A stretch of 64,000 bases of DNA from Patescibacteria group bacterium (GTDB lineage: Bacteria; Patescibacteriota; Microgenomatia; Daviesbacterales; UBA10151). The stretch lies in NCBI GenBank assembly GCA_038064895.1, contig JBBTSA010000010.1:118616-182615 (forward strand). Direction: 5' to 3'. Position numbers and translations under genes: made by a program. The notes under the pieces were generated by a model. That model ran no database searches, was not told where the DNA came from, and worked only from the letters and a program-made list of their open reading frames with translations. Shown here one piece after another: positions 12,645 to 29,664 of this stretch. How positions within the stretch are numbered: the first letter of the stretch is position 1; each line of letters opens with the position of its first letter.

Positions 12645-13406
12645 ATGGCTAAATCAAATTCAGATCAAATAAACATTGTCATACCGATGTCAGGAGAAGG
12701 TAAAAGCTTCATCCAAGCAGGCTATACTTTTCCAAAACCTTTAATAGACATTAATGGAAAACCGATGGTTCAAATAGTTCTTGAAAATCTTACGCCTAAA
12801 TATAAACATAAATTTATATTAGTCTGCAAAAAGGAACATTTTGATAAGTATTCTATGCATCAAGTATTTGTTAATTCTATCAAGGGAGATTTTATAACCA
12901 TCCCACTAATTTCATCTACACAAGGAGCACTTTGTAGTGTACTTAATGCAGTTGATCAAATCAGTAGTAATCAAGAATTAGTTATTGCTAATGCCGATCA
13001 AATTATTGATATAGATATTAATAAATTTATTGACTTTGCAAGAAAATCAAAAGCCGATGGAGTGATTATGACCTTTAAATCTCATCATCCTCGTTGGAGT
13101 TATGCGAGAGTGGATGAAAAAGGTATTATTTTAGAGACAGCGGAGAAAAAAGTTATATCTGATCAGGCCACTGTTGGGATATATTATTTTAAAGCAGGTA
13201 GCTCATTTATGAAAGCGGCATTTTCTATGATAGAAAAAAATATCCGCTTTAATAATGATTTTTATGTTTGTCCTGTCTATAATGAACTAATTTTAGAAGG
13301 CAAAAAAATTATTAAGTGGGAGATAAAAGATGTACAAATGCACGGACTCGGAACTCCTGAAGATTTAAACAGTTATTTAAATTTAGCGTCTAAAAAACGG
13401 AAATGA
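12645..13406 (+). CDS. Sugar-1-phosphate nucleotidyltransferase-like (short-form NTP_transferase, GT-A fold), paralog 1
   Basis: IVIPMSGEGKSF (degenerate G-x-G-x-R/K loop), KPLIDINGKPMV, and C-terminal W.I.DVQMHGLGTPEDL (WxDxGT-like). Tandem with its paralog 13403..14173 with a 4 nt overlap. Confidence 0.6.
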   Translation: MAKSNSDQINIVIPMSGEGKSFIQAGYTFPKPLIDINGKPMVQIVLENLTPKYKHKFILVCKKEHFDKYSMHQVFVNSIKGDFITIPLISSTQGALCSVLNAVDQISSNQELVIANADQIIDIDINKFIDFARKSKADGVIMTFKSHHPRWSYARVDEKGIILETAEKKVISDQATVGIYYFKAGSSFMKAAFSMIEKNIRFNNDFYVCPVYNELILEGKKIIKWEIKDVQMHGLGTPEDLNSYLNLASKKRK

Positions 13407-14173
13407 AAGTTGTGGTACCAATGGCAGGAAAAGGATCAAGGTTTTCAGATGCTGCTCATTTAAATTCGGAGTATAAAAAACCAAAACCTTTAATTAGTAT
13501 TAAAGGAAAACCAATGATTGTTTGGGCAATTGAATCTTTAAAAAAGTTTAACCCTAAGCCGCAAGATCTTATTTTTATCTGCAGACAGGATCATGAAGAC
13601 GATTTCCAAATATCTCGCTCTCTAAAAGATCTTTTTGGCGATCAAATTAAAATAGTGCTTATTGCTCAAATCACAAAAGGTGCTGCAGAAACGGTTTTAA
13701 AAGCCAAAGAATATATTAGCTCTGATGAAGATATTATTGTTTCTGATTCTGATCACTATTTTGACGGGAGCTTTCTATACAATAAAGTTTCCGGCAAGGA
13801 TTCAGAAACTGAAGGGGTAATACCGGTTTTTAAACCCCCTGATAAAGACCCAAAATGGAGTTTTTCGTTGGTTGAAAAGGGTGATACAGTTACAGCGGTT
13901 GGAGAAAAAGATAAGGAACTTGCTGCAAAGGGAGCTTATGCAAATATCGGGGGTTATTATTTTACTCATGGAAATGTTTTTGTCAAAGAAGTAGAAGGGG
14001 CAATTTTAGAAAATGATTTAACAGGAGATGAAGGGAAAAAAGAATTTTATGTTGCACCAATCTATCAAAGATTAATCAGTAAGGGAAAGAAGATAATTGC
14101 TGCTATTACTCCAAATGTCTGGGGCCTGGGTACCCCCAAGGATGTTGAATATTTTGAAACCAATTTTAAGTAA
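13403..14173 (+). CDS. Sugar-1-phosphate nucleotidyltransferase (short form), paralog 2
   Basis: VVVPMAGKGSRF (canonical GxGxR signature), KPLISIKGKPMIVWAIESL, C-terminal VWGLGTPKDVEYF. Confidence 0.7.
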   Translation: MKVVVPMAGKGSRFSDAAHLNSEYKKPKPLISIKGKPMIVWAIESLKKFNPKPQDLIFICRQDHEDDFQISRSLKDLFGDQIKIVLIAQITKGAAETVLKAKEYISSDEDIIVSDSDHYFDGSFLYNKVSGKDSETEGVIPVFKPPDKDPKWSFSLVEKGDTVTAVGEKDKELAAKGAYANIGGYYFTHGNVFVKEVEGAILENDLTGDEGKKEFYVAPIYQRLISKGKKIIAAITPNVWGLGTPKDVEYFETNFK

Positions 14174-14178
14174 TTAGT

Positions 14179-14592
14179 ATGTACCGTTTAACCAAAAATG
14201 AAAATTCGTATAAAAAGTATCTAATGGGTGAGAAGGGTTGCTATTTTTGTAAACCAGAACCAAAAGTAGTAGTTTTAAAAACAAAAAACTTTTATATAAG
14301 CAAAAATAATTTTCCTTATGATTTTTGGGATGGCCAAAAAGTTATCAAACATTTGCTGGTTGTATCAAAAAAACATTCTTCTATTTCGAGTTCCAAAGAC
14401 AGCAGTTTACTCTTTGAGTATAACCGGTTAATAAATAAATATTCTAATAGGGGATTTGATATTTATACCAGAACTCCTAACTCCCCTTCCAGATCCCAAA
14501 GCCATTTTCATACACATTTAATTAAAACAGATGGGAAAAAACTTAAAAAACTTATTTACAACTTAGAACCATACAGATTATTAGTTGAATAA
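14179..14592 (+). CDS. HIT-family (histidine triad) nucleotide hydrolase/transferase
   Basis: HINT-like CYFCKP near the N-terminus and the histidine triad HFHTHLI near the C-terminus. Confidence 0.65.
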   Translation: MYRLTKNENSYKKYLMGEKGCYFCKPEPKVVVLKTKNFYISKNNFPYDFWDGQKVIKHLLVVSKKHSSISSSKDSSLLFEYNRLINKYSNRGFDIYTRTPNSPSRSQSHFHTHLIKTDGKKLKKLIYNLEPYRLLVE

Positions 14593-14593
14593 A

Positions 14594-15523
14594 TTATCTG
14601 AAGCCTTGATAATCTCTATATCTTCTGTAGACTGCTTCTCTAACATCATCATAAACCACAGCATTAGTTCCGATTGCGATTTGAGTTGATTCTGTTACCG
14701 GTTTTCCAAACCTATCAGTGAATCTCCCTCCAGCTTCTATAATGGCTAAACCACCTGCAGCTAAATCAAAAAATCCTCCAACTGCATCGGTTAAAGTAGC
14801 TTCAGCCCTACCAGCTGCTACTTTTAGCTGTTGATCAATATTACTTCCGCTCATCCTAAAACCAATATTATGACCAGAACTTCTCTCTAGCGCCTTCATA
14901 AAGTTATGCTTTCTGGATGAATTTTTATCGTTAAATAGCGCATCAACATATACAATGCCACCTTCCAAACCCTGTTTTGATACTTCAAGTTGCCTCTCAT
15001 AATGTAAGTCAGTTAAAAATTCACTATCAATCCAAAAAAGATGAGTACCCTTACCTATCTGTGCCACTACCAGCTCTTTTTCAAACGGATGGTAAATTGC
15101 TGCCGCGAATGGTTTATTCCCTTCGTACACAGCATTTCCTACAGTTGAATATCTTTGTCCTCTAGCATAGCTGGAGGTTCCATCCAGAGGATCAAAATGG
15201 TAAGAGTTCCCATCGCTTCCCTCCTCATCTCCTGTTTCTTCCTCATTAATTCTACTTTTAGGAAATTTATTTCTAATAACTTCTTTACCTATTCTACCTG
15301 ATTCCATATCGGCTACAGTTCTAGGTGTATTACCTGCCTCGGCTTTATAGACTGTTTGTAAAACTTCTGGAGATGCTCCATATATCTCTAAAACTTTTTC
15401 ACCTCCCAAAACTACAGCTGCTGCAGCTGTAGTTAAACGTGGATCGGATAGACCATTTGCTTGTAATCTCTCATGAACCACATCTATAGTTTTTCTAGCT
15501 TCAATACCTAATTCTTTTGACAT
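14594..15523 (-). CDS. Inositol monophosphatase / FBPase / CysQ-family phosphatase
   Basis: HFDPLDGTSSY (DPxDGT metal-binding motif), WIDSEF, and C-terminal GG..DLAAG. Convergent with the HIT gene with a 1 nt gap. Confidence 0.75.
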   Translation of the reverse strand: MSKELGIEARKTIDVVHERLQANGLSDPRLTTAAAAVVLGGEKVLEIYGASPEVLQTVYKAEAGNTPRTVADMESGRIGKEVIRNKFPKSRINEEETGDEEGSDGNSYHFDPLDGTSSYARGQRYSTVGNAVYEGNKPFAAAIYHPFEKELVVAQIGKGTHLFWIDSEFLTDLHYERQLEVSKQGLEGGIVYVDALFNDKNSSRKHNFMKALERSSGHNIGFRMSGSNIDQQLKVAAGRAEATLTDAVGGFFDLAAGGLAIIEAGGRFTDRFGKPVTESTQIAIGTNAVVYDDVREAVYRRYRDYQGFR

Positions 15524-17462: not shown

Positions 17463-17512
17463 TTAACTATTTTAAATGTTATTTGTAAAGTTTTTTCGTG
17501 TATAATTCCGAT

Positions 17513-18520
17513 ATGAATCTAAATTTAGGAATTGTTGGCCTTGGATATTGGGGGCCAAATTATGCAAGGGTAATAAGTCAGCTGGAAGATGTGGCTCTTA
17601 TATGGTGCTGCGATACTAATAATGTTGCATTGTCTAAATTTTCAAAACTTTATCCTAATATAAGGACTACCAACAACATAGATTTACTGCTAAATGACAG
17701 TAATCTAAATTGTGTAATAATAGTAATTCCTGCACAGGGTCATTTTAGGGTAGCAAAACAATTTTTACAAAAAGGTAAGGATGTTCTGCTGGAAAAGCCG
17801 CTTACTGATAATTTGAAGGAGGCAAAAGAGTTGGTTGATCTTGCCCAAAAGAAAAAAAGAGTACTAATGGTGGATCATACTTTTATTTTTAATGCTGCGA
17901 TAAGAAAATTAAAAGAGTTAATTTATAGTCAAGAACTGGGAAAAGTATATTACATCTATGGTAATTATAATGCATTAGGGCCTATTAGAAGAGATATTTC
18001 TTCTATGTGGGATTTACCTCATTTTATCTATGTAGTAAATTTTCTTCTGGGTACTACTCCGCTCTGGGTACAGGCAGCTGGAAAAGATTATTTACAAAAA
18101 AAAATGGAGGACGTAGTGTTCTTAACCTTTGAATATCCAGGAGATATTTTGTTTAATCTAAATTGTTCTTGGATAGACCCTGTTAAGGTAAGAAGGCTGG
18201 TAGTAGTTGGAGAGAGAAAAATGGTTGTTTTTGATGATATGGAACCTGAAGAAAAGCTTAAGATATATAATAAGGGAGTTGATTTATCTGATGACCCTAA
18301 TTTTGCCGATTTGCAGCTGATAGTAAGACACGGTGATACATTAATTCCCAAGCTGGAACCAGAAGAACCTTTGAAGGAAGTAACTAAAAATTTTATAAAA
18401 AGTATTCAAACAAGAAACAATAATATTGCCAATGGTGATGATGGGCTAAGTTTGGTTCGAATATTACATTATGCTCAAAGTTCTTTAAGAAAACAGGGTA
18501 AAAGGATAAAAATACGGTGA
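17513..18520 (+). CDS. Gfo/Idh/MocA-family NAD-dependent oxidoreductase, WbpB/WlbA-like (UDP-sugar 3-dehydrogenase candidate)
   Basis: MNLNLGIVGLGYWGPNYARV Rossmann start and EKP motif (LLEKPLT). Paralog of 27847..28869. The track start at 17498 is GTG; the ATG at 17513 is preceded by TATAAT at 17501-17506. Confidence 0.7.
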   Translation: MNLNLGIVGLGYWGPNYARVISQLEDVALIWCCDTNNVALSKFSKLYPNIRTTNNIDLLLNDSNLNCVIIVIPAQGHFRVAKQFLQKGKDVLLEKPLTDNLKEAKELVDLAQKKKRVLMVDHTFIFNAAIRKLKELIYSQELGKVYYIYGNYNALGPIRRDISSMWDLPHFIYVVNFLLGTTPLWVQAAGKDYLQKKMEDVVFLTFEYPGDILFNLNCSWIDPVKVRRLVVVGERKMVVFDDMEPEEKLKIYNKGVDLSDDPNFADLQLIVRHGDTLIPKLEPEEPLKEVTKNFIKSIQTRNNNIANGDDGLSLVRILHYAQSSLRKQGKRIKIR

Positions 18521-19164
18521 AAAAATATCAAGTTTACAAAAATGTCAAAATTGGTAAGGATACAAAAATTGAGGATGGGGTGATTATCGGACTCCCACCT
18601 ACCGACAAAATAAATGGTGAGTTATCAACAATAATTGGTGAGAATACATATATTAGGGCAAATACTATCATTTATGCAGGAGTTACAATTGGTAAAAATT
18701 TCCAAACAGGTCCAAATGTCTTGATACGAGAAAATAACACAATTGGGAATAACGTTGTAGTTTGGCATGGGAGTACTTTAAACCCGGATAATGTAATCGG
18801 AGATAACTGCCGAATTCACGCTGGTTGTTTTTTGGAAATGGTCACATTGGGCAAAAGCGTTTTCTTGGGTCCGAGAGTTACTTTTACAAATGACCCCCAC
18901 CCTATGCTTCCTGTTAATTTTAAGGAGTGTTTAAAAGGAGCAACCGTAGGAGATAGTGCTGTAATTGGAGGAAATGTGACGATCTTACCTCATATTAAGA
19001 TCGGGGGCAAGGCAGTTATAGGAGCTGGTTCTGTTGTGGTAAAAAATATCTCAAGCAGTAAAGTCGCTGTTGGCAATCCGGCAAAAGTAATTAAGAGTGT
19101 TTCAGAGCTAAAGTGTATAAAATCAGGAAAAATCCACTATCCTTATCGAAACAAAAAGATTTAG
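18517..19164 (+). CDS. Hexapeptide-repeat (left-handed beta-helix) sugar N-acetyltransferase, WbpD/PglD-like
   Basis: Repeated [LIV]-G-x-x-x-x hexads: IGNNVVVWHGSTLNPDNVIGDNCRIHAGCF...IGGNVTILPHIKIGGKAVIGAGSVV. Start overlaps the upstream dehydrogenase by 4 nt. Confidence 0.75.
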   Translation: MKKYQVYKNVKIGKDTKIEDGVIIGLPPTDKINGELSTIIGENTYIRANTIIYAGVTIGKNFQTGPNVLIRENNTIGNNVVVWHGSTLNPDNVIGDNCRIHAGCFLEMVTLGKSVFLGPRVTFTNDPHPMLPVNFKECLKGATVGDSAVIGGNVTILPHIKIGGKAVIGAGSVVVKNISSSKVAVGNPAKVIKSVSELKCIKSGKIHYPYRNKKI

Positions 19165-19166
19165 AT

Positions 19167-19925
19167 TTAGTTTTTTAATTTCAATTTTAATAAAAATACT
19201 GGCTTTGCAAATTTCCACCAGTCAATAATTGGTCTAATTTTTGAGTAATTTTTTACATTTGCTAGATAATCTTTTGAAATGGGTACCTCTTTAACTTTAT
19301 AACCTAAAGTTATAACTTTATAGTGCAAATAAACTTCCAGTTCATAACTATTAAGCCAATTTTGATCTATATTAATTCTCCTATCCTTAAAAATTGACAG
19401 CTTGTAAGCTCTAAAGCCATTTGTAGAATCTGTAAATTTAAATCCTATAAATATCCTCATGAATAATGTAAATCCCAATATCATAATTTTTCTTAAAATT
19501 GGCAAATTTTTAAATGATCCACCCTTCAAAAACCTGGAGCCTTGCACATAATCAAAGTTGTCATTGATAATGGGACTTAGCAAAAGTGGAATCTCTAAAG
19601 GAGTATCCTTACCATTTCCTGCCATTATTACACAAATATCAAAATTGTTACTTAGCCCAAAATTGATTACACTTCTAATTGCTGAGCCCACTCCTCTATT
19701 GCTTGTATGCGAAATTATCTTTGCATTTTTAATATAATTTTTCTTTAAAAAAATTTTAATAACTTTTACAGAATTATCTGTTGACCCATCATTAAGAAAT
19801 AGTATTTTATATGAAAAGTTTAAATGAAACCTTTTAAATTTTTCTAATAGGAATCTTATCTTATCTGCCTCATTGTAAAAGACCACACCAATCAAAATCT
19901 TGAGGTTATTTTTCATATCTTGCAA
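19167..19925 (-). CDS. Glycosyltransferase family 2
   Basis: KILIGVVFYNEADKIRFLLEKF...LNDGSTDNS (GT2 D-G-S motif). Confidence 0.7.
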   Translation of the reverse strand: MQDMKNNLKILIGVVFYNEADKIRFLLEKFKRFHLNFSYKILFLNDGSTDNSVKVIKIFLKKNYIKNAKIISHTSNRGVGSAIRSVINFGLSNNFDICVIMAGNGKDTPLEIPLLLSPIINDNFDYVQGSRFLKGGSFKNLPILRKIMILGFTLFMRIFIGFKFTDSTNGFRAYKLSIFKDRRINIDQNWLNSYELEVYLHYKVITLGYKVKEVPISKDYLANVKNYSKIRPIIDWWKFAKPVFLLKLKLKN

Positions 19926-21367
19926 TAAATCAGTTGATAGTAAAGAGGATCTTTCTCCATTTTTTCCCTCATAACTTTCTTATATCCTTCAAATTGATAG
20001 GGCTGAAAAATGTATTGAATGTGCGGTTCCTTAAGTAAAACTTCATTTTTGCAGAATTCATCCATATTAAAATTACCAAAGTAGGGAAAAGTCTGAACAG
20101 CATTCATGGTATAGTACTTACCTGACTCTCCGCCTTTAAAAAAATGCCAAACTAGTTCAGGATCGGGATTTTCACTATCCCAATAATTAACAAAAAGAGT
20201 ATCTTCAATCTCATATTTATCATATTTTACATCTAAATAACTTCTGGCTGTTTGTTTAAATTGTGCCGGGTAGATAAGACTTTTATATGCTAAAAATCTT
20301 GGCAAATGGTTAAGAAAAGTAATTATAAGTATAATACCTAGGGCAAATGAATATATTCTTTTGCTAAAAACCCTTTCTAAAAGTAGTCCACTAAATCCTA
20401 AAGTTAAAAGATACAGCGGCCTAACAGTTCTACCAAATAAAACATGTTTTTGTAAAATATGAGAAAAAGTCTCTAAGATTAAAAGTACAAGCATTAAGTA
20501 AATAGCAAAAAATAATATTTTCTTCCTACTCTTAATCAAAAATATTCCGGGGAAAATAATTAGAATAAGAAGCAAATTCCAATAGCCATCAACTGCAAGA
20601 ATATATTCTCCTATATAAGATGCTGCCGGCATATAATCTCCTTGTTGAATAGCGGTTACTCCACCTGATTGATCTTTTAATGATTGAAGATATGAGGTAC
20701 TACTGCCAATACTTACGGATAAAAATTGAGTTGTAATAATAATCAGTGATATCCCAATTATAAAATGTAGCGCACTCTTAAGAGACCTGTTATACAAAAT
20801 TAATATAAACGGAATTGGAATAAGGTAGTAGTAATAACTAGGATAAGTTAAAAAAGAAAGTCCTGCAAACAGACCAAAAAGTAATGATTTTTGAAAATAT
20901 ACATATAAAAATAATCCTATTAACAGAAGTAGTAACGCTAAATCATAAGGTAAGGTGTGTCTTATATAGATAAGGGGTGCTATTGAAAAAGTTAATATCA
21001 GCGTAGTGACAATTGCTGCTTTAAGATTTTGAATTTTTTTAACAATAAAAAAAACTAATATTAGAAGCAGTGAATTAATTATCAGGTTGTAAGATAAAGC
21101 AAAAGGAATATTTGGATTTTGCAACTCTAGAAAAGCTGGTGGATAATAAAATAAACCCGCTCCCGGCCTGGCATCTATATTAAAAAGCTGCTTAAGGGGC
21201 AACAAATAATTTCCTAATTTATATGCTTCATCTAAATTAGCAATCAATAAGGGATAACGTGACTCGTCTGCCCAGAACCCAACAGCATCTTTATTGAAGA
21301 TTAGCAAACGAGTGAAAAAAATTATCACTACCAAAATAAATATTAACCAGTAGCGCGATCTTATCAT
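19913..21367 (-). CDS. ArnT/PMT-like GT-C glycosyltransferase (GT83/GT39-like), polytopic membrane protein
   Basis: 484 aa with about 11 hydrophobic helices. First loop carries GFWADESRYPLLIANL, resembling the conserved DE.RY loop-1 motif of ArnT and protein O-mannosyltransferases. Sits downstream of the GtrB/ArnC-like GT2 22950..23657. Confidence 0.6.
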   Translation of the reverse strand: MIRSRYWLIFILVVIIFFTRLLIFNKDAVGFWADESRYPLLIANLDEAYKLGNYLLPLKQLFNIDARPGAGLFYYPPAFLELQNPNIPFALSYNLIINSLLLILVFFIVKKIQNLKAAIVTTLILTFSIAPLIYIRHTLPYDLALLLLLIGLFLYVYFQKSLLFGLFAGLSFLTYPSYYYYLIPIPFILILYNRSLKSALHFIIGISLIIITTQFLSVSIGSSTSYLQSLKDQSGGVTAIQQGDYMPAASYIGEYILAVDGYWNLLLILIIFPGIFLIKSRKKILFFAIYLMLVLLILETFSHILQKHVLFGRTVRPLYLLTLGFSGLLLERVFSKRIYSFALGIILIITFLNHLPRFLAYKSLIYPAQFKQTARSYLDVKYDKYEIEDTLFVNYWDSENPDPELVWHFFKGGESGKYYTMNAVQTFPYFGNFNMDEFCKNEVLLKEPHIQYIFQPYQFEGYKKVMREKMEKDPLYYQLIYCKI

Positions 21368-23052
21368 TGATTCAGTGATGCCTCTACCCTTTGTTTCACA
21401 TCGTCTTTAATATCCAGAACTTTTTCCCCCTCAACTTTTAAGGCGAAAATCCTACCCCAAATATCAGGTTCCTCCTTTTCAGATAAGCTTTTTTCTACAT
21501 AAGAAACTAATTCTCCATATGTTATTATTGGAGGTGCCAGTAAACTGTTAAAAGCAATTAATTCCTTTGTGTCAAATGTTGAAGGTTTAGTATCAATTTT
21601 ATAAACAGCTAGTGTATGAGGGATAAATCCGTCATTAACAGTATAAATTGCCCTAGCAGTGCCATCGGTTTCAAAGTAAAATACATTCATTTTTTCTTTA
21701 CTTAAACTGGATTCTGGAACAACTTGAGGAATTTGTCTCCATATTTTCGTCATAAATGGACCGTTTCTTTGATTTGATAATTCATTTAAAAAAAAGTATG
21801 TAGTAATGGAATGAATTAAAATCAATAATATCATCGAACTGACAATAATTTTCTTAAATCTAGTTTTTTTTGTTAAAGAAACAAGAACTGCCATTGTAAT
21901 AACAAAACCTATGAAGGGAGGCATCAAATACCGCATTGTTGAAGGTAATGGAGGAGACTCTGTATGACCATTATATGTGTATATTAAAAAATATAATGTA
22001 AAAAAGAGTAGTGTCCATAAAATAAAAGAAGATAAAAGATGAAAATCTTTGCTTTTTTTCTTTACTATGTATATAGAAATTATTACAAAGCTAACTATTA
22101 AAGCAATTCCAAAAATTTGTGAGATAGTACCACTTCTATCAATAACGCTTGGGAAAATAATATTACCTAAACCTGCTAGATAGTTTGTAATAATCTTAAA
22201 CTCTAAGCTCACCCAGCTTACTAAAAAAGAAGTAGCGTCTGAAGCAAATCGACTAACTTCACTAATTTTACCTTCAACTGCCCCCAGACTATACCAGGCA
22301 AAAATACCTATTTTATACAGTAATATAAAAATCACAAGTACTATAGTTTGTCTTATTAGAAAAGGTTTTACCTTATTTTTTTCAAAATGTAATAACAGTC
22401 TGGTACTATCGACAATAAATGCCCAAGCATATACTGGAAAAACTCTAAAGGATGCAATAGAAGTAGCAAGCAGTAGTGCTATCCCCATAGGTAATAAGTA
22501 TATATAAGAAAATTTTTCTTGTATCTTGAAAAAAGTAATTAGAAAAATTGTTAATACAAACATTGAAATATATGAAATCATATTCATTACTTCATAAGTA
22601 TTTTGAAGCCCGGCAAAGGATACTGAAAAAAATAAGCCTCCTAAAAATGAGGCTAAACGATCTTTAGTTAAAGTGTAAATAAACACCAGAATAGTAAAGG
22701 CAAGCAGGTTTCTAAAAATAAAAGATAAAATATAGTAGGATAAAAAATCTGGGCCCAGAAAGGTGTATAAAGTATCCATAAACCAAACCGGACTGGTATA
22801 AGTTGAAGTTCTAATATCTGCATAATCAGTTTTTGGCAAAACTACGCCGCGCCAATCCTCATCTTCGAAAGCCAGATTAAAAGAAGGAAATAATACTATA
22901 AAAGAAATAATTATTATTGAAATAAAGGACAAAAAGTAAAATTTTAACACTATTTCTGGATAGTGTACCACAACCTTAATATTCCAAAAAGTGATTTGAT
23001 GGCAACGAGCAAACTTGTTCCTTTGGCTTTTCCGCCTTTTCGCCCTCGCCAA
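21364..23052 (-). CDS. Polytopic membrane protein, family B (putative GT-C-like glycosyltransferase)
   Basis: Paralog of 35442..37247 (FPSFNLAFEDEDW vs YPSFNLALFGDDW; LTKDRLASFLGGLFFSVSFAGL vs LTKNKLSGIFAVLFFSVTTIGL). The tabulated N-terminus overlaps 22950..23657 by about 100 nt. A GTG at about 22982 (VVHYPEIV) is a more plausible start. Confidence 0.5.
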   Translation of the reverse strand: MARAKRRKSQRNKFARCHQITFWNIKVVVHYPEIVLKFYFLSFISIIIISFIVLFPSFNLAFEDEDWRGVVLPKTDYADIRTSTYTSPVWFMDTLYTFLGPDFLSYYILSFIFRNLLAFTILVFIYTLTKDRLASFLGGLFFSVSFAGLQNTYEVMNMISYISMFVLTIFLITFFKIQEKFSYIYLLPMGIALLLATSIASFRVFPVYAWAFIVDSTRLLLHFEKNKVKPFLIRQTIVLVIFILLYKIGIFAWYSLGAVEGKISEVSRFASDATSFLVSWVSLEFKIITNYLAGLGNIIFPSVIDRSGTISQIFGIALIVSFVIISIYIVKKKSKDFHLLSSFILWTLLFFTLYFLIYTYNGHTESPPLPSTMRYLMPPFIGFVITMAVLVSLTKKTRFKKIIVSSMILLILIHSITTYFFLNELSNQRNGPFMTKIWRQIPQVVPESSLSKEKMNVFYFETDGTARAIYTVNDGFIPHTLAVYKIDTKPSTFDTKELIAFNSLLAPPIITYGELVSYVEKSLSEKEEPDIWGRIFALKVEGEKVLDIKDDVKQRVEASLNQ

Positions 23053-23657
23053 TTGATTGGAACTTCTACAAAAGAATATTTTTGTTTCATTGCCTTACTT
23101 ATAACTTCAGGTAAAAACATTGCACTTCTATCTTCGCTTTCAATTTCAATTGATTGAACAACTCTCTCCCGCCACAAAGAAACCGTAGAAAATTCTCTAA
23201 GGTTTATTCTAAGAAGTTTTCGATTTAGGAATAAATATGGTAGATGGAAAATTATTGCCTTTATTTTTCTACTAACGCGCTCCTCGTTTGAAACTCTGTA
23301 CCCTGTTGCAACATCATGTCCCCGAATTGCTTCTATAAACTTAGGCAGCTCACTAAAATCAAATTGTCCGTCGGCAGGAGCAAGAAAAATCCAGTGTTTA
23401 TGAGCAGATGCAAAAGCAGTTTTCATTGCTCCGGTAAATCCTTTATTCTTTTTATGATGATGAGCGAAAACTTTTTTACTGTGGGCTAACTTATCAATAA
23501 TTTTTCCGGTATTATCTGTTGAGCCATCATTAACCAGTACTATTTCATAATCTACTTTTAGTTTTTTTAAAATTAAAGTCGCATCTCTAACTACATCTTT
23601 AATTGTCTCTTCTTCATTGAAAGCGGGGATAACTACAGAAATGGAGTCAGTTTTCAT
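22950..23657 (-). CDS. GT2 polyprenyl-phosphate glycosyltransferase, GtrB/ArnC/DPM1-like
   Basis: ISVVIPAFNEEETIKDVVRD...YEIVLVNDGSTDNTGKIIDKL...FLAPADGQFD. Short (235 aa), DPM1-like architecture. Confidence 0.75.
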   Translation of the reverse strand: MKTDSISVVIPAFNEEETIKDVVRDATLILKKLKVDYEIVLVNDGSTDNTGKIIDKLAHSKKVFAHHHKKNKGFTGAMKTAFASAHKHWIFLAPADGQFDFSELPKFIEAIRGHDVATGYRVSNEERVSRKIKAIIFHLPYLFLNRKLLRINLREFSTVSLWRERVVQSIEIESEDRSAMFLPEVISKAMKQKYSFVEVPINWRGRKGGKAKGTSLLVAIKSLFGILRLWYTIQK

Positions 23658-24610
23658 CTTACTATACCAAGTGTTCCCTTTATAGAGGAAAAGATTTTAC
23701 TGGCCGGTAATTTTTTTCCTTCTACCTCTATCTCTTCTATTTTCAAACTGCCATCACCGGTTAAAACTTCCACCCATCCCTGCCCTACCGCTACAACTCT
23801 TCCCGGAATTCTACCAACGAAGTTTCGTGGAGAATCAGTAAATGAAGCCTTTTGTATAATAATTTTTCTCCCTTCATAGATTGTAAATGCTCCTGGATAA
23901 GGATCAGACAATGCTCGTATCAGATTATAAATATCTTTCGCAGGTCTAGTCCAGAAAATCTCACCGTCATCTGGAGTACGGAAGCAAGTATAGGTTGCTT
24001 CTTTTTCATTTTGTTTTATTCTCGAAGCACTTCCCCTTTTTATATCCTCCAAATAATCTATAAGAATTTCTACTGATGCGGTTTTGGTCTTTTGATAAAG
24101 CGTAAAACCAGTATCAGTTGATCCAATAGGTATTTTTCTTTGTGCTATTATATCACCGGAATCTATACCCTCATCCAGATAAAACAATGTCACCCCACTC
24201 ATCTTTTCACCATTTATAATGGCCCAATTAATCGGCGCAAATCCTCTGTATTTGGGCAAGAGTGATTCATGCACTGCCACAACTCCCCTTTTGGGAATTT
24301 TTAATACTTCAGAGGGTATTATGGTTCTCCATCCCATCACAATAATAAGTAATGGTTTTAAATTTTTTAAGAGATTAATATCAGTTACACTCTTAATAGT
24401 TTTAGTAACTTTAACCGGAATTGAGTGTTTCTTGGCTAAAGCTACGATCTGTTTAGAATATTTTTCTTTCTCATGATCATCTTCTTCCAAACAAAAAATA
24501 TAAGGTAACTTTTCACCTTTTTCTATAAGGGCTTTTATGCACTTAAGTCCCCTATCCCTTCCGCCGATAAAAACTATATTTTCATCCTTTTGCATATTAA
24601 CCTTCCGCAT
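23654..24610 (-). CDS. Sugar N-formyltransferase (Fmt/ArnA-FT/VioF-like formyl_trans_N plus C-terminal domain)
   Basis: LIIVMGWRTIIPSEVLKIPKRGVVAVHESLLPKYRGFAPINWAIINGEKMSGVTLFYLDEGIDSGDII is the HxSLLPxxRG plus D catalytic signature of N10-formyl-THF-dependent formyltransferases. Located in a sugar-tailoring operon, not next to def/fmt. Confidence 0.75.
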   Translation of the reverse strand: MRKVNMQKDENIVFIGGRDRGLKCIKALIEKGEKLPYIFCLEEDDHEKEKYSKQIVALAKKHSIPVKVTKTIKSVTDINLLKNLKPLLIIVMGWRTIIPSEVLKIPKRGVVAVHESLLPKYRGFAPINWAIINGEKMSGVTLFYLDEGIDSGDIIAQRKIPIGSTDTGFTLYQKTKTASVEILIDYLEDIKRGSASRIKQNEKEATYTCFRTPDDGEIFWTRPAKDIYNLIRALSDPYPGAFTIYEGRKIIIQKASFTDSPRNFVGRIPGRVVAVGQGWVEVLTGDGSLKIEEIEVEGKKLPASKIFSSIKGTLGIVR

Positions 24611-25790
24611 ACTCTAATATTTTACTTATTATAAAGTCTTGCTGTTTAGCTGTCATATTAAAATATAGTGGGATTGTTAAAGTTTGCTTTGTTGCCGCTT
24701 CTGTTTCTGCAAGTGCAAGTCTAGGGTACATTTTCCTATAAGGAGTTTCTAAATGGGCTGCCATTACACCAATTCTTGTAGAAATACCTGCATTTAACAG
24801 CTTTTGCATCAGCACATCTCTTGTTATTTTCCCATTGGGTTGCAAACGAATAATATAAGACTGGAAATTATGAATGTAACCCTCTGGGATAAAAGGCGCA
24901 GTTATATTTTTACTCGTAGAAAAAACTTTCGTGTAATATCTTGCAATCTGTACTCTCTTTTTCAAAATCACTTTCAATTTTTTCATTTGCTCAACTCCAA
25001 TTGCAGCTTGAATATCTGACATACGGAAATTATATCCAATAACAGGGTAGTTTTCTTTAATAACTTTACTTGCTTTGTGGCGCACTACATCTGATACTGA
25101 CATACCTTGATGTCTCAAAATTCTTAATTTTTCTGCCAACTTTTTACTGTTTGTTAAAATCATACCTCCTTCCCCTGTTGTTATAGCTTTTCTTGGATGA
25201 AAACTAAAACAAGCTACTTCTCCAAAACTTCCAATCATCTTTCCCTTATAAGGAAACCTTGTAAGCTCATCTTGAAAGAAGTTTCCTTTCAAGCTTCGCT
25301 TATAAACACTCCCTAAAGCGCATGCAGCATCTTCAATTACATGCAGTCTGTATTTTTTGGCAATTTTAAAGATTTTATCGTAATCAGCAGGTAATCCTAC
25401 CTGATCAACAGGAATAATGGCTTTTGTTTTTTTTGTAATAGCCTTTGCAATTTCTTTTGGATCAATATTGTAAGTTTTTGGATCAATATCTACAAAGACA
25501 GGTGTAGCTCCTGCATGTACTACCACATTTGCCGTAGCAATAAATGAAAAAGACGGTACAATTACTTCATCTCCGCGACCTATTCCTAAAGCATGCAAAC
25601 ATAAAAAAAGAGCTGTTGTTGCCGAGGTTGTGGCAACAGCATATTTTGCTCCAACATATTTTCTTACTGCCTCCTCAAACTCTTCAACTTTCGGCCCTTG
25701 AGTAACCCACCCCGATCTAATTACCTTAGCAACTGCATTTTCCTCGGATTTATCAAAATATGGCTTTGTTAATGGAATCCTCATTACCAA
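24597..25790 (-). CDS. DegT/DnrJ/EryC1/StrS-family PLP-dependent sugar aminotransferase (ArnB-like)
   Basis: FSFHPRKAITTGEGGMILTN contains the Schiff-base Lys in the canonical SFHxxK context. Confidence 0.8.
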   Translation of the reverse strand: MVMRIPLTKPYFDKSEENAVAKVIRSGWVTQGPKVEEFEEAVRKYVGAKYAVATTSATTALFLCLHALGIGRGDEVIVPSFSFIATANVVVHAGATPVFVDIDPKTYNIDPKEIAKAITKKTKAIIPVDQVGLPADYDKIFKIAKKYRLHVIEDAACALGSVYKRSLKGNFFQDELTRFPYKGKMIGSFGEVACFSFHPRKAITTGEGGMILTNSKKLAEKLRILRHQGMSVSDVVRHKASKVIKENYPVIGYNFRMSDIQAAIGVEQMKKLKVILKKRVQIARYYTKVFSTSKNITAPFIPEGYIHNFQSYIIRLQPNGKITRDVLMQKLLNAGISTRIGVMAAHLETPYRKMYPRLALAETEAATKQTLTIPLYFNMTAKQQDFIISKILEYAEG

Positions 25791-26755
25791 TTTTTCTCCT
25801 GATAAAATTTAAGAGCCTTTTTCGGATTGGGCATAAACTTTTTAAACCAATCTAAGTATCTTTGAACACCCCCTGTTATATCAATTCCTGCTTTAAAACC
25901 TAAATCTTTTCCTGCCTTCCTTGTATCAGCGAAATGTCTTATAACATCACCTGGACGAGGATCTAAATGTTGAATTGGTACATCTACTTGGCATATTTTT
26001 AAAACAATTTTAGCCAAATCCGATATTGATACTTCCTGGCCATGCCCGATATTATAAGCTTGACCTAATGTACCTTTCTCAAAAACTGAATAAATACCCC
26101 GGGTAACATCTGTCACAAATGTAAAATCCCTTGTTTGTTTACCATTTCCAAAAATTTGTAGCGATAGTCCATTTAAAGCTCGCACAATAAACCTTGGTAT
26201 TACTTCCCCATACGGACCCTCAAAGTGCTCATTATATCCATAAGTGTTAAATGGTCTAACCACCACAATAGGATATTTGTAGGTTCTAAAATAAGCTTGG
26301 CAGTAAAGCTCTCCGGCTAATTTACTGGCTCCATAAATAGTCGTGGGGCTGGTTGGGTGATTTTCAGACATAGGTACAGTTTCGGCACTCCCATAGATCT
26401 CTGATGAAGAGATGTACACGAATTTGGGGATTTTATTGATAAAAGCTGCGTCTAAAACTGATAAAGTTCCAGTTGAATTGACATCATGCACCAACCAAGG
26501 ATCCTTTATAGATTTTCTAACACATTGGACAGCTAGATGAAAGACTACATCTGCCTTATTTATAACTTTCTTCATCTGCATTTTATCAAAAACACTGACT
26601 TCGATAATTTTTAGATTTTTATCATTCGGTAAGTTTTCTTTTTTACCAATAGAGAAATCATCAATAACAACTACTGACCATCCTTTCCTCAATAGAAAAG
26701 TAGTCAAATTGCTTCCAATAAAACCAGCTCCTCCTGTTATAACTGCTTTAGACAT
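25784..26755 (-). CDS. Extended-SDR NAD-dependent NDP-sugar dehydratase/decarboxylase/epimerase (RmlB/UXS/ArnA-DH-like)
   Basis: VITGGAGFIGSNL (Rossmann), YGASKLAGELYCQAY (YxxxK), VVVRPFNTYG. 323 aa. Confidence 0.7.
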   Translation of the reverse strand: MSKAVITGGAGFIGSNLTTFLLRKGWSVVVIDDFSIGKKENLPNDKNLKIIEVSVFDKMQMKKVINKADVVFHLAVQCVRKSIKDPWLVHDVNSTGTLSVLDAAFINKIPKFVYISSSEIYGSAETVPMSENHPTSPTTIYGASKLAGELYCQAYFRTYKYPIVVVRPFNTYGYNEHFEGPYGEVIPRFIVRALNGLSLQIFGNGKQTRDFTFVTDVTRGIYSVFEKGTLGQAYNIGHGQEVSISDLAKIVLKICQVDVPIQHLDPRPGDVIRHFADTRKAGKDLGFKAGIDITGGVQRYLDWFKKFMPNPKKALKFYQEKNW

Positions 26756-26756: not shown

Positions 26757-27866
26757 TTATTTATTTCCTTTGAAAAATTTTTGTATTAGAGAACATATAT
26801 ATTCTATTTCCTCTGTCCTTAATCCAGGATACATGGGAAGTGAAATAATTTCTTTTGCATACAGTTCTGTAATAGGAAACGCTCCCTTTTTATAGTCAAG
26901 ATCATTAAGGGATTTCTGCATATGGATAGGAATCGGATAATGAATTCCACAAAAAACACCTTTCCTTTTTAGATACTCTAATAAGACGTCTCTTTTTTTG
27001 CTCCTCACAACAAAGAGATGGTAGTTAGAAACAGTACCATCTCTTTCTTTTGGTAGAACAAGAGGCAAACCCTCTAATAACTCCTTATAAAGAGTGGCTA
27101 GTCCCCTCCTTTGTTTATTCCATGTATCCAAATATCTAAGCTTTGCCCTTAGAATGGCTGCCTGAAGAGTATCTAGCCTGCTATTGTAGCCTCTTTCGGT
27201 ATGATGATATTTCTTTTGCTGTCCCATATTACGGAGCACTTTTATCCTTTGGGCTAAATCTTTATTATTTGTAACTACTGCTCCTCCATCTCCCGCAGCT
27301 CCTAAATTTTTGGCAGGATAGAAAGAAAAAGCGGCCATATCGCCAAATGAACCGCATTTCTTTCCGTTTAACATTGAGCCATGGGCTTGACATGCATCTT
27401 CCAAAACAAACAAATTGTGGCTACGGGCAATTTTCATTATTTTATCCATTGGAGCAGGGATTCCATAAAGATGAACAGGAATTATAACTTTAGTTTTTTT
27501 ACTTATTGCTTTTTCCAAAACCTTGGGGTCCATTTGGTAAGTTTCAGAGTCAATTTCCGAAAGTACTGGTTTTGCTCCAAGTATAACGATTGGGAAAACA
27601 GTAGCCACAAAAGTATTGGGGACAGTTATAACTTCATCCCCTGCTCCTACTCCCATGGCATGAAGCGAAAGCAAAATTGCATCTGTACCGGAGGCTACAC
27701 CAACGCAATATTTAACTTTGCAAAACCTGGCAAATTCTTTCTCAAATTTTTCAACTTCCTCACCCAATATAAAATCTCCTTTTGAAAAAATTTTATAAAG
27801 TGAGTCATCAATCTTTAATTTAATCTTTTGGTATTGATAAGAAAGATCAACTAAAGGAATTGGCAT
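26757..27866 (-). CDS. DegT-family PLP-dependent sugar aminotransferase, WbpE/PglE-like
   Basis: FSFYPAKNLGAAGDGGAVVTN (SFYPxKNLGAxGDGGA signature of UDP-keto-sugar aminotransferases). Confidence 0.8.
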   Translation of the reverse strand: MPIPLVDLSYQYQKIKLKIDDSLYKIFSKGDFILGEEVEKFEKEFARFCKVKYCVGVASGTDAILLSLHAMGVGAGDEVITVPNTFVATVFPIVILGAKPVLSEIDSETYQMDPKVLEKAISKKTKVIIPVHLYGIPAPMDKIMKIARSHNLFVLEDACQAHGSMLNGKKCGSFGDMAAFSFYPAKNLGAAGDGGAVVTNNKDLAQRIKVLRNMGQQKKYHHTERGYNSRLDTLQAAILRAKLRYLDTWNKQRRGLATLYKELLEGLPLVLPKERDGTVSNYHLFVVRSKKRDVLLEYLKRKGVFCGIHYPIPIHMQKSLNDLDYKKGAFPITELYAKEIISLPMYPGLRTEEIEYICSLIQKFFKGNK

Positions 27867-28869
27867 CTTTAACTTTTGTCCCTTTCTTTAATGAATTACT
27901 GGCAGTTTCTAAAATTTTAATAATCTCTGATCCAAATCTTCCATCACTCCTCAAAACTTTCCTGCTGGTAATAGAAACAACAAAACTTTTCGCCATCAAA
28001 CTTAATGGCTCAACAATATCTATTTTTGGCAGCCAGACATCACCAGTTCTATAGCCAATTTTAATTTGTTCAATACTTCTTGCCGGATGATCTAAAGTTA
28101 CACCTTTATCATAAACCCTTATCTTTTCTGCCGGGGCAGTGTCTTCATCATAGACAATCATTTTTTTTGTCCCAGTAATTAACATACGCCTTACTTTTAC
28201 CGGAGAAATCCAACTAACGTGAATGTGGGCAAAAATATCTTCGGGATAAGAGGCTGTAATGTATGCAACCTCTACCTGGTTGTTGAAATGTGACTTACCA
28301 ATTGTACTAACTTGTTTCGGTTGAGTTCCCAAAATATACTGAATGATGGAAAAATCATGAGCAGCCAAATCGAAAATAACATTTATATCTTTTTGAAAAA
28401 GACCAAGGTTTGTGCGGGTTGAGTCAATATATAAGATTTTTCCTATTTCACCCTTATCAATTAACTCCTTTATCTTAATTACTGCCGGATTGAACAAAAA
28501 AGTATGGTCTACCATAAGTATTCTTCCTCTTTTTTTGGCAAGTTGGACTAAAATTTTTGCCTGCTGTAATGTTTGGACCATAGGTTTTTCAACCAAAACA
28601 TCTTTCCCCCCGTTAAGAGCTGCTACTGCTAAATCAAAATGAGTGCTGGTGGGGGTTGCTAAAATGACTGCATCAATTGACTCATCATCAAGAATTTCAT
28701 TATAGTTTTGTGTAGTTAACATATGAGGGAACTTTCTTTTGATCTCTTGCAATTTTTCTAAATCTATATCACAGCAATAACGAATGTTGCAATTTGGGAT
28801 ATTAATAAAATTCCTAAGCAAATTTGGACCCCAATATCCAAAGCCTATAAGAGCCAAATTTTTTGTCAT
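27847..28869 (-). CDS. Gfo/Idh/MocA-family oxidoreductase, WbpB-like, paralog 2
   Basis: MTKNLALIGFGYWGPNLLRNF and LVEKPM. About 35% identical by eye to 17513..18520. Directly upstream of the WbpE-like aminotransferase. Confidence 0.7.
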   Translation of the reverse strand: MTKNLALIGFGYWGPNLLRNFINIPNCNIRYCCDIDLEKLQEIKRKFPHMLTTQNYNEILDDESIDAVILATPTSTHFDLAVAALNGGKDVLVEKPMVQTLQQAKILVQLAKKRGRILMVDHTFLFNPAVIKIKELIDKGEIGKILYIDSTRTNLGLFQKDINVIFDLAAHDFSIIQYILGTQPKQVSTIGKSHFNNQVEVAYITASYPEDIFAHIHVSWISPVKVRRMLITGTKKMIVYDEDTAPAEKIRVYDKGVTLDHPARSIEQIKIGYRTGDVWLPKIDIVEPLSLMAKSFVVSITSRKVLRSDGRFGSEIIKILETASNSLKKGTKVKDANSFS

Positions 28870-28902: not shown

Positions 28903-29664
28903 ATGATAGAGGTCATAGCTCACAGGGGTAATTTTTTACCTGAAGGACCTATTCCAGAAGTTCAAAATAAATATATAGTTGCGGAAAATACCCTTGAAGC
29001 TTTTGAAAGAGCTTTTAACAATGGGTGGGGCGTAGAAACTGATGTAAGAATATGGGAAGATGGAAATTTTGTACTTATTCACGATGCTGATGCTGCCCGA
29101 ATTTCAAAGTATCATAAATTTAAAATTCCTACTCTGGATGAACTTTGTCAACTAGCCAAAGGTGCCTTCATAGCATTTCAGATAAAGCGTAGCTCTGATC
29201 CAAAAAGCGGAGTTGAAGTTGGTAGAGCTGTTGCAAAAATGATGCAGCAATATAATTTGCAAGAAAGCATTTTATTCGATGCTACCTTAGAAGAAGCTCA
29301 AATTTTAAGCCAAGAATTTCCCTGGCTTAATTTATCAATTTCAGTTGGTGAAAAAAATTATACTCCTACCATTTATACTCCGTATCAAGCATTGACAACC
29401 CAGTTTACTTCTGTATATACCTCTGTATGGACGGATGAATGGAAGATTCCCGGATCTATTTACAATGAGCTGCTATTTAAAAAGTTAAGAGCTGCATATC
29501 CAGGAAGAATTGACGTTATCTCTCCTGAACTGCACTACAATGAGGACCATCCGTTCTCGAAAGATTTAGAAAAGCTAAAAAAGCTTTGGAGGGAGATTGT
29601 CAGTTGGGATCTGGCTGATGGAATCTGTACTGATTATCCGACCCAGTTAAATACTATTTTGTAG
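28903..29664 (+). CDS. Glycerophosphodiester phosphodiesterase (GDPD/GlpQ/UgpQ family)
   Basis: VIAHRGNFLPEGPIPEVQNKYIVAENTLEAFERAFNNGWGVETDVRIWEDGNFVLIHDADA matches the HR(G)...EN(T/S)..AF...G....E.D......DG..V..HD signature. A TATAAT lies at 28890-28895. Confidence 0.75.
   Translation: MIEVIAHRGNFLPEGPIPEVQNKYIVAENTLEAFERAFNNGWGVETDVRIWEDGNFVLIHDADAARISKYHKFKIPTLDELCQLAKGAFIAFQIKRSSDPKSGVEVGRAVAKMMQQYNLQESILFDATLEEAQILSQEFPWLNLSISVGEKNYTPTIYTPYQALTTQFTSVYTSVWTDEWKIPGSIYNELLFKKLRAAYPGRIDVISPELHYNEDHPFSKDLEKLKKLWREIVSWDLADGICTDYPTQLNTIL

Follow-up and report, generated by a model that had tools for sequence, protein, structure and literature searches.

Transfer of a lipid-carried sugar by a glycosyltransferase of the C fold (GT-C) outside the membrane is a known scheme, represented by the Arn, Gtr, CsbB/YfhO, PpgS/Rv3779 and pentofuranose systems. 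In mycobacteria, PpgS (Rv3631) and Rv3779 place galactosamine (GalN) on arabinogalactan, with GT-C transfer outside the membrane and a wall polysaccharide as acceptor. The FlmF2/NaxD/FlmK proteins of Francisella and LgmABC of Bordetella follow the same course, an ArnC-like glycosyltransferase of family 2 (GT2) loading an N-acylated amino sugar that a GT-C transfers outside; the sugars of the PpgS, Flm and Lgm systems are N-acetylated, and a deacetylase takes part where one is known. The Ara4N, Francisella GalN and Bordetella glucosamine (GlcN) systems are precedents for an N-acyl group that serves as a transient handle. In bacteria of the Candidate Phyla Radiation (CPR, Patescibacteria) the cell envelope mediates the episymbiotic lifestyle and, to our knowledge, almost nothing is known experimentally of its chemistry; a literature search for Arn-like systems or GT-C enzymes in Patescibacteria found nothing. 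In the Arn pathway, ArnC accepts the formylated donor only and ArnD deformylates afterwards (PMC12690121). Here a nine-gene operon was analyzed in a 64,000-nucleotide stretch (the window) of contig JBBTSA010000010.1 from a metagenome-assembled genome of groundwater Patescibacteria. Homology and structure modelling led us to read it, with moderate confidence, as an Arn-type 'three-component' module for extracytoplasmic glycosylation with an N-formylated amino sugar.

Operon structure and gene coupling

All six minus-strand open reading frames (ORFs) of an initial annotation, made from the sequence alone, were found at exactly the coordinates first given, and their domain calls and both quoted motifs were correct. 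The interval proposed as the operon (19913-26755) contained six real genes but cut off three genes of a nine-gene unit. This co-directional, coupled unit runs from 28869 to 19167 on the minus strand in the order GFO/MocA oxidoreductase, second DegT aminotransferase (DegT-2), short-chain dehydrogenase/reductase of the extended type (SDR), DegT aminotransferase, formyltransferase (FT), GT2a, GT-C protein of 535 or 522 aa, GT-C protein of 484 aa and GT2b (Table 1), and start and stop codons overlap or abut throughout. A convergent pair, a second GFO/MocA oxidoreductase (GFO-2) and a hexapeptide acyltransferase, lies beyond the operon end.

The order GFO-SDR-DegT-FT-GT2-GTC-GTC recurs in L009, an independent metagenome contig, where every encoded protein but the SDR is 66-84% identical. 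Because the genes overlap or abut and their order recurs in L009, the six-gene arrangement is not a chance juxtaposition. The operon lies within a >60-kb cell-envelope glycan island of groundwater Microgenomates-like Patescibacteria; the sequence of the 484-aa protein also occurs on a Hainich groundwater contig. The window has a GC content of ~33% and only three intergenic gaps of at least 50 nt, and scans for consensus promoters and terminators returned the same counts as shuffled controls.

Formyltransferase

The FT (probable start 24595, 313 aa) combines Formyl_trans_N and Formyl_trans_C, the two-domain build of the ArnA formyltransferase domain (ArnA-FT) and of Fmt. Genuine E. coli K-12 proteins were used as references and compared by BLAST. 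The FT was closer to ArnA-FT than to Fmt in every score: BLAST (33% identity and 166 bits vs. 29% and 139 bits), PDB matches (156 vs. 138 bits), a profile of 23 family members (215.9 vs. 184.4 bits) and NCBIfam (stand-alone formyltransferase PRK06988 232.6, ArnA 215.4, fmt 188.5 bits). The score for fmt (TIGR00460) was under its cutoff of 201.5 bits, as were those for ArnA (cutoff 777, a model of the whole formyltransferase plus dehydrogenase) and PRK06988 (cutoff 316). Relative to the E. coli Fmt loop RPAGRGKK there is a 3-residue deletion, and an acidic EEDDHEKEKY stands there instead. An orthodox Fmt was dismissed on the TIGR00460 score, the missing loop insertion and the family-profile scores.

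The HxSLLPxxRG signature is present as HESLLPKYRG (residues 114-123, window 24242-24271). The ArnA catalytic triad, which we take to be N102/H104/D140 (Asn-x-His ... Asp), is partly retained: His and Asp are kept, and Asn is replaced by Ala (VAVHESLLP vs. FNLHGSLLP in ArnA). The canonical Asn position is A, G or T in all 22 relatives compared, from CPR, Gemmataceae and Elusimicrobia, in most of which the Gly after the His is replaced by Glu or Asp. Hallmarks of the subfamily are [AG]-x-H-[ED]-SLLP (residues 110-123) and a conserved EDxHExE[KR][YF] loop. These sequence features define a distinct subfamily, nearer to ArnA-FT than to Fmt and predicted to act as a sugar N-formyltransferase. In all the sugar cassettes seen (CPR and Gemmataceae loci, L016), the FT gene is directly downstream of a DegT gene; no second FT homolog occurs in the 64-kb window. 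The NCBI and JGI pipelines name this FT and its homologs 'methionyl-tRNA formyltransferase', a label that we argue is wrong for the subfamily because of gene context and sequence.

Small GT2 proteins

GT2a gave near-full-length alignments only to models of polyprenyl-phosphate glycosyltransferases (ArnC, PpgS, dolichyl-phosphate (Dol-P) hexose transferase and AglJ), in keeping with its first description as a DPM1/ArnC-like GT2. It spans positions 7-224 of the 226-position PpgS model and aligns with ArnC over residues 3-212, with all scores far under the cutoffs. Identity to E. coli ArnC is 24% over 214 aa, and GT2a stops ~90 residues before the ArnC end; equally short NCBIfam models are PpgS (226 positions) and the haloarchaeal Dol-P hexose transferase (213). 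The motifs of ArnC, GtrB and DPMS have been defined as a DADLQ metal site and Arg residues that bind the phosphates of acceptor and donor (PMC12690121). PADGQ of GT2a (window 23364-23378) falls on DADLQN of ArnC; it retains the Gln and the second Asp and lacks the first. GT2a also keeps a GYR and a C-terminal Arg, comparable to the Arg residues noted in ArnC, GtrB and DPMS. Orthologs directly follow the FT gene in L009 (66% identity) and in L015 (54%), where the protein is fused to a hexapeptide domain. By sequence, GT2a is predicted to be a polyprenyl-phosphate glycosyltransferase (ArnC/PpgS/DPM1-like). The second small protein, GT2b, matched the AglJ, Dol-P hexose transferase and PpgS models of NCBIfam, and its L009 ortholog is 67% identical.

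GT-C membrane proteins

Both GT-C proteins have 9-10 hydrophobic segments. The 484-aa protein had no Pfam (PF13231 PMT_2, PF02366 PMT) or NCBIfam match at E<=10, and a profile of its close family found no PDB GT-C by sequence. An AlphaFold2 (AF2) model built from an alignment of 24 homologs had a pLDDT of 83 and a pTM of 0.85. When the model was searched against PDB with Foldseek, ranks 1-37 were all GT-C-fold membrane proteins (probability 0.84-1.00), including ALG9 (best, E 5e-6), STT3, PglB, AftB, ALG12, Pmt4 (TMq 0.54) and DPY19. A profile search of 1.84 billion representatives yielded 717 relatives of the family at E<=1e-3 and 17 at E<=1e-30. Of 47 remote relatives, taken at E<=1e-17 against the family profile, 9 matched PMT_2 (PF13231, best 4e-9) and one matched PMT. 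Among the GTDB species representatives, just three have a gene for a relative.

The WADESRY motif first noted in this protein occupies residues 32-38 (window 21254-21274), and hhalign places its DE on QPDETRY of E. coli ArnT (E 7e-4, probability 26%). D34-E35 showed no variation among 24 close or 48 distant homologs, and D34, E35, H137, Y175, R313, N422 and R467 were invariant across the whole family set, with the consensus FPDExRY. The C-terminal domain contains beta structure and two invariant Cys. The modelled GT-C fold, the link to PMT_2 through intermediates and the aligned DE support the ArnT/PMT fold originally suggested, and the protein is best described as a divergent, putative PMT_2/ArnT-like GT-C.

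The ORF at 21364-23052 (562 aa) most likely starts at 22971 (535 aa, as in ENA/Logan) or at 22932 (522 aa, as in NCBI). The 522-aa form was modelled by AF2 with a pLDDT of 81 and a pTM of 0.83 (alignment of 21 homologs), and Foldseek matched it to STT3, PglB, AglB, DPY19, AftA and ALG9 (probability at least 0.98, E 1e-4 to 2e-2). The best structural matches were STT3/PglB/AglB, and the label 'family-B GT-C' that it had been given is not supported. It had no Pfam or NCBIfam match at E<=10, its family profile gave no PDB match, and hhalign of the family against E. coli ArnT showed no link. An invariant acidic loop-1 motif, F-E-D-E-D-W, lies at window 22852-22869.

Seven members of this family occur in the window, all polytopic, of 520-630 aa and without a Pfam or NCBIfam match, with [DE]-D-W just after the first transmembrane (TM) helix (paralogs in Table 1). 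The GT-C fold was modelled for one of the seven, and the local expansion is striking. These proteins may represent a new family of GT-C enzymes, or they may supply the missing flippase or a partner subunit of the 484-aa enzyme.

SDR, aminotransferases and oxidoreductases

The SDR carries the motifs SSSEIYG (residues 116-122, window 26390-26410) and YGASK. Its Glu aligns with those of RfbB (STDEVYG), the ArnA dehydrogenase domain (ArnA-DH, STSEVYG) and Gmd (STSELYG), and neither GalE nor the best-scoring PDB epimerases have Glu at this position. As the motif is common to GDP-mannose 4,6-dehydratase, it is not specific to ArnA-DH or UDP-xylose synthase (UXS). BLAST gave 134 bits to RfbB (30.5% identity), 108 to GalE and 69 to ArnA-DH (23.6%), PDB matches were 158-167 bits for 4-epimerases, 150 for archaeal RmlB and 133 for hUXS, and NCBIfam gave 195 for RmlB and 63.5 for UDP-4-keto-pentose/UDP-xylose synthase. 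Placement by similarity was not informative: 4-epimerases, RmlB and UXS are about equally close to the SDR, and ArnA-DH is remote from it. The dehydratase/decarboxylase type of the original call stands on the catalytic Glu, its only support, and the SDR is not in the ArnA-DH clade (69 bits vs. 134 for RfbB and ~165 for 4-epimerases). The substrate was also sought through the context of orthologs, which gave no answer: the SDRs at the equivalent position (L009:1321-2283, L014:5822-6790, L015:5907-6887 and L016:14991-15992) are a different protein, 32-39% identical to the window SDR, and read SSASVYG (SSASIYG in L016), the epimerase type.

The DegT aminotransferase upstream of the FT (probable start 25784, 395 aa) is 37% identical to E. 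coli ArnB, in agreement with the ArnB-like role first given to it, and its NCBIfam scores were 335 bits for PseC and 309 for ArnB. Its orthologs are 79, 65 and 48% identical and always directly upstream of the FT. The first operon gene, GFO, scored 175 bits with the NCBIfam model of UDP-GlcNAc 3-dehydrogenase, under the cutoff, and its orthologs head the same cassette in L009 (84%), L015 (56%), L016 (46%) and L014 (41%). The DegT-2 gene shares 20 nt with the GFO gene; DegT-2 has orthologs in L015 (62%), L016 (47%) and L014 (44%) and none in L009; judged by sequence, it is the likely partner for a keto sugar made by GFO, presumably at C3.

Orthologs of the convergent GFO-2 and hexapeptide acyltransferase pair are present in L009 (77-79% identity), and the contiguous cassettes of L014 and L015 include a hexapeptide gene; the convergent pair probably serves as the N-acetylation branch of this amino-sugar cassette. 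A route from UDP-GlcNAc3NAcA through decarboxylation, 4-amination and formylation to a 2,3-diacetamido-4-formamido pentose was considered and is unsupported, there being no adjacent WbpA-type dehydrogenase. The only UDP-sugar dehydrogenase-family gene, of the UDP-glucose/GDP-mannose dehydrogenase family and 23% identical to E. coli Ugd, is 27 kb away, paired with another SDR (Table 1); a comparable pair is near the GT-C pair in L001-L004 and L008. This dehydrogenase may be a WbpA-like UDP-GlcNAc 6-dehydrogenase.

Related loci

The two GT-C genes (5xx and 48x aa) are neighbours in all related loci of at least 47% identity (L001-L004, L008, L009 and L017), and the more distant relative in L018 (39%) has no partner beside it. 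The genes around the pair differ between loci. In L009 (pair at 65%) it stands with GFO-SDR-DegT-FT-GT2, and in L008 (73%) with a different formyltransferase and a different small GT2. The L008 formyltransferase (L008:1016-1894, 292 aa) has Formyl_trans_N only, retains the canonical N-F-H, matches ArnA FT best in PDB (80 bits) and has its gene just upstream of the orthologous GT-C pair. The replacement is non-orthologous: an independently recruited formyltransferase keeps the association of formyl and GT-C genes. L002 and L004 flank the pair with a GT2, a DegT and a hexapeptide acyltransferase, and a carbamoyltransferase is directly upstream of it in L001 (6667-8367), L003 (6651-8342) and L017 (6591-8279). 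A carbamoyltransferase (Carbam_trans_N/C) in the window is 38% identical to the homolog of these three loci. Genes for GDPD-family proteins are near the pair in relatives; the one in the window is divergent from the operon and matches the first ~60 profile positions only.

The sugar cassette GFO-hexapeptide-DegT-SDR-DegT-FT recurs in L015 (Microgenomates, where the GT2a ortholog follows), L014 (Gemmataceae) and L016 (metagenome contig). Orthology at 41-84% identity covers GFO, both DegTs, the FT and GT2a, and does not include the SDR. The upstream GFO and DegT-2 genes, which the initial annotation had not included, are conserved parts of the cassette across phyla. Beside the FT cassette of L015 is a 1179-aa AftD-like protein.

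Deformylase, flippase and acceptor

An ArnD-like deformylase had been reported as not visible, and this holds for the 64-kb window: Pfam found no member of the ArnD/polysaccharide-deacetylase family among ORFs of at least 120 aa, and tblastn of E. coli ArnD against all six frames gave nothing better than E 0.3. Precomputed Pfam lists of ten related loci (L001-L004, L005, L008, L009, L014-L016), with L005 the entry from the source organism itself, have no deacetylase of this family on record. E. coli ArnT and ArnE/F had no BLAST match in the window, and a search there for small TM ORFs of GtrA/SMR type outside the annotated ORFs gave none. No Wzx, Wzy, ABC exporter or initiating phosphoglycosyltransferase was detectable by Pfam among the scanned window ORFs.

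The formyl, acetyl and carbamoyl genes that replace one another beside a constant GT-C pair suggest diversification of a retained N-substituent, and retention of the formyl group seems more likely than its removal. Lipid A is unlikely as acceptor because the host belongs to CPR, a group described as monoderm and placed in a monoderm clade (bioRxiv 10.1101/2021.05.31.446380). A wall glycopolymer or surface protein is more likely.

Proposed mechanism and rival explanations

In the proposed module, the SDR, with its dehydratase/decarboxylase-type Glu, would make a 4-keto sugar from a UDP-amino sugar in the cytoplasm, the ArnB-like DegT would aminate it, and the ArnA-FT-like enzyme would N-formylate the new amine. 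An additional acetamido group is probably introduced by GFO, DegT-2 and the hexapeptide acyltransferase nearby, so that the product would be a di- or tri-amino sugar and not plain Ara4FN or Qui4NFo. GT2a would then load the formylated sugar on polyprenyl phosphate, and the lipid-linked sugar would be flipped across the membrane. One of the two adjacent proteins with a modelled GT-C fold would transfer it to an extracytoplasmic acceptor, the stronger candidate being the 484-aa PMT_2/ArnT-like protein with its invariant Asp-Glu in the first outer loop. The 522-aa GT-C and GT2b are likely to form a parallel donor/transferase pair for another sugar.

Several observations weigh against this scheme. 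The SDR is non-orthologous in an otherwise orthologous cassette, with epimerase-type counterparts, which weakens a simple Arn analogy, and cassettes with an epimerase-type SDR leave the origin of the 4-keto substrate for the ArnB-like DegT unexplained. Formyl transfer is assumed for an FT subfamily that lacks the canonical catalytic Asn. GT2a has no hydrophobic segment and hence no TM helices, unlike ArnC and GtrB, which have two at the C-terminus. The match of the 484-aa model to ArnT (5ezm) was modest (rank 20, E 0.025, TMq 0.51), behind ALG9. No flippase candidate (GtrA, SMR, MATE or Wzx) was found in the window. Relatives at 47-68% identity flank the GT-C pair with GT2, DegT and hexapeptide genes or with a carbamoyltransferase instead. 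The cassette is present in L014 in an O-antigen locus of Wzy/ABC type without a GT-C, and in L015 without the adjacent pair; this makes the cassette a nucleotide-sugar module of general use, coupled to the GT-C genes locally.

The main rival is conventional cytoplasmic assembly, in which the cassette would supply a formyl-sugar nucleotide for an ordinary repeat-unit glycan, GT2a would act on an undecaprenyl-diphosphate (Und-PP)-linked oligosaccharide, and the GT-Cs would use other donors or act in the manner of a polymerase, ligase or oligosaccharyltransferase. This was judged possible but clearly less probable than the Arn-type module. The Wzy_C and Wzt ABC-transporter genes of the Gemmataceae locus, the GT-C pairs without FT genes in L001-L004 and L017, the TM-less GT2a and the oligosaccharyltransferases as best fold matches of the 522-aa protein are all consistent with it, but the end-to-end alignment of GT2a with polyprenyl-phosphate glycosyltransferases only, its D, Q and R residues kept, points the other way. 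So do the missing Pfam matches, among the scanned window ORFs, to Wzx, Wzy, an ABC exporter or an initiating phosphoglycosyltransferase, the translational coupling of FT, GT2 and GT-C genes in the window and in L009, and the L008 locus, in which an FT of a second type adjoins this pair.

A true Arn-like scheme, with the formyl group a transient handle that an enzyme encoded elsewhere removes on the lipid carrier to leave a free cationic amine on the CPR surface, is unlikely. The order of events in the Arn pathway, formyl-specific ArnC and then ArnD (PMC12690121), is a direct precedent, the FT, DegT and GT2 are each nearest to Arn proteins among the E. coli references, and the search covered 64 kb of a contig of at least 256 kb; against these stand the lack of a polysaccharide-deacetylase-type gene in the window and on record in the related-locus tables, the occupation of the FT slot in sister loci by hexapeptide N-acetyltransferases or a carbamoyltransferase, and the Gemmataceae FT cassette, which belongs to a locus of O-antigen type, a setting in which formamido sugars are as a rule kept. 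That the FT is simply the methionyl-tRNA formyltransferase of the organism, placed by chance in a glycan locus, is highly improbable. The source annotations, the Fmt-type two-domain architecture and a TIGR00460 score just short of the cutoff would fit it, but every comparison favours ArnA-FT, the Fmt-specific loop insertion is replaced by the acidic loop, the ORF overlaps DegT upstream and GT2 downstream, and the DegT-FT pairing is kept across related loci of several lineages.

Other features of the window

The window encodes 13 polytopic membrane proteins in 64 kb. A second paralogous family has three members of 765-783 aa (12-14 TM, 28-40% mutual identity); Pfam, NCBIfam and BLAST gave no connection between it and the remaining membrane proteins. 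A 712-aa membrane protein matches Pfam GT-C_AftD, the mycobacterial arabinofuranosyltransferase family. Five ArnC/DPM1-like GT2s (235-262 aa), GT2a and GT2b among them, lack C-terminal TM helices, and several adjoin large unclassified membrane proteins, which suggests several parallel lipid-donor/GT-C pairs. A sugar C-methyltransferase and a block of a HAD hydrolase, two nucleotidyltransferases, a DUF3605 protein and an inositol monophosphatase are also encoded.

A broader and more speculative reading, held as a possibility short of probable, is that CPR bacteria of Microgenomates type build much of their surface glycan outside the membrane with many polyprenyl-phosphate monosaccharides and a large unclassified GT-C repertoire, much as mycobacteria build arabinogalactan and lipoarabinomannan. 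The window would then be one 'factory', with its 13 polytopic proteins, seven-member [DE]DW family, PMT_2-like family, AftD-like protein and five DPM1-like GT2s, and the contribution of the operon would be an unusual di- or tri-amino sugar, N-formylated by an FT with a rewired active site, [AG]-x-H-[ED] where N-x-H-G is canonical.

Table 1. Coordinates of operon genes and other features of the window.
Feature	Position	Strand	Evidence
GFO/IDH/MocA oxidoreductase, UDP-GlcNAc 3-dehydrogenase-like, first operon gene	27847-28869	-	Pfam GFO_IDH_MocA E 1e-26
Second DegT aminotransferase (DegT-2)	26757-27866	-	Pfam DegT E 7e-118
Extended SDR	25784-26755	-	Pfam Epimerase E 6e-61
ArnB/PseC-like DegT aminotransferase	24597-25790	-	Pfam DegT E 2e-116
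Formyltransferase (FT)	23654-24610	-	Formyl_trans_N E 1e-30 + Formyl_trans_C E 7e-21
GT2a, 235 aa	22950-23657	-	Pfam GT2 E 8e-24; ArnC model E 2e-16 over residues 3-212
GT-C-fold membrane protein (modelled), 535 aa (or 522)	21364-22971	-	AF2 + Foldseek
GT-C-fold membrane protein (modelled), 484 aa, putative divergent PMT_2/ArnT-like	19913-21367	-	AF2 + Foldseek
GT2b, DPM1/AglJ-like, 249-252 aa, last operon gene	19167-19925	-	Pfam GT2 E 9e-14
Second GFO/MocA oxidoreductase (GFO-2)	17498-18520	+	Pfam
Hexapeptide acyltransferase	18517-19164	+	Pfam
Paralog of 522-aa protein	35442-37247		
Paralog of 522-aa protein	37233-39050		
Paralog of 522-aa protein	39056-40945		
Paralog of 522-aa protein	40949-42835		
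Paralog of 522-aa protein	44852-46744		
Paralog of 522-aa protein	46747-48327		
765-783-aa membrane protein family	2641-4938		
765-783-aa membrane protein family	33161-35473		
765-783-aa membrane protein family	55382-57733		
AftD-like membrane protein, 712 aa	7077-9215		Pfam GT-C_AftD E 1e-12
Carbamoyltransferase	10250-12040		Carbam_trans_N/C
HAD hydrolase/nucleotidyltransferase/DUF3605/inositol monophosphatase block	11991-15523		
GDPD-family protein	28903-29664		
ArnC/DPM1-like GT2	48331-49086		
Sugar C-methyltransferase	49067-50305		Methyltransf_13/14
ArnC/DPM1-like GT2	51632-52366		
SDR and dehydrogenase pair	52363-54572		
UDP-glucose/GDP-mannose dehydrogenase-family gene	53322-54572		
ArnC/DPM1-like GT2	54628-55416		

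Comparison with known systems

The scheme is an established one; new here are the host lineage, two unmodelled GT-C families, the altered FT active site, the flippase and deformylase not found, and the density of GT-C-like genes. The locus is a concrete module of defined soluble enzymes, a candidate lipid-loading GT2 and two GT-C families with invariant acidic residues. As read here, the Arn-type logic of formylating, loading on lipid and transferring outside would reach beyond the modification of diderm lipid A. The analysis also flags a widespread FT subfamily that is now mislabelled as Fmt, and two GT-C-fold families without a Pfam or NCBIfam model.

Compared with Arn (Pmr), the polymyxin-resistance pathway of Gram-negative bacteria, the operon shares an ArnB-like DegT (37%), an ArnA-FT-like N+C formyltransferase (33%), an ArnC-like GT2, a GT-C with a PDETRY-like loop-1 and a co-transcribed order from tailoring through lipid loading to GT-C. 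It differs in that searches of the window found no ArnA-DH-type decarboxylase, ArnD or ArnE/F, in that GT2a lacks the two TM helices of ArnC and the GT-C is not ArnT by direct sequence search, in having two GT-Cs and two GT2s, in the monoderm-group host, so that a lipid A acceptor is unlikely, and in the extra GFO, DegT and acetyltransferase genes, which imply a more heavily aminated sugar. The 'same logic' as Arn seen by the initial annotation is partly supported.

With PpgS, Flm and Lgm the likeness is the TM-less, PpgS-like GT2a (by NCBIfam alignment), and the differences are the predicted formyl substituent and the absence of a deacylase among the genes found. As in WbpB/WbpE/WbpD, GFO, DegT and hexapeptide acyltransferase genes accompany SDR-DegT-FT across the related loci, but no WbpA-type dehydrogenase is adjacent and the predicted 4-N-acyl group is formyl, not acetyl. 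A triamino pentose has a precedent in 2,3,4-triacetamido-2,3,4-trideoxy-L-arabinose from the O-antigen of Psychrobacter cryohalolentis (PMC8040287), and by analogy the gene content of the cassette is what a 2,3-diacetamido-4-acylamido sugar would need, by a presumed route.

The GtrA/GtrB/GtrC, CsbB/YfhO and pentofuranose systems (PMC11127046) likewise combine a polyprenyl-phosphate sugar synthase with a GT-C to modify a pre-formed extracytoplasmic glycoconjugate. Unlike them, the present locus has no flippase among the genes found, a dedicated amino-sugar/formyl cassette and GT-C families without Pfam or CAZy-style models; as in those systems, the GT-C members are highly divergent and often recognised by fold only.

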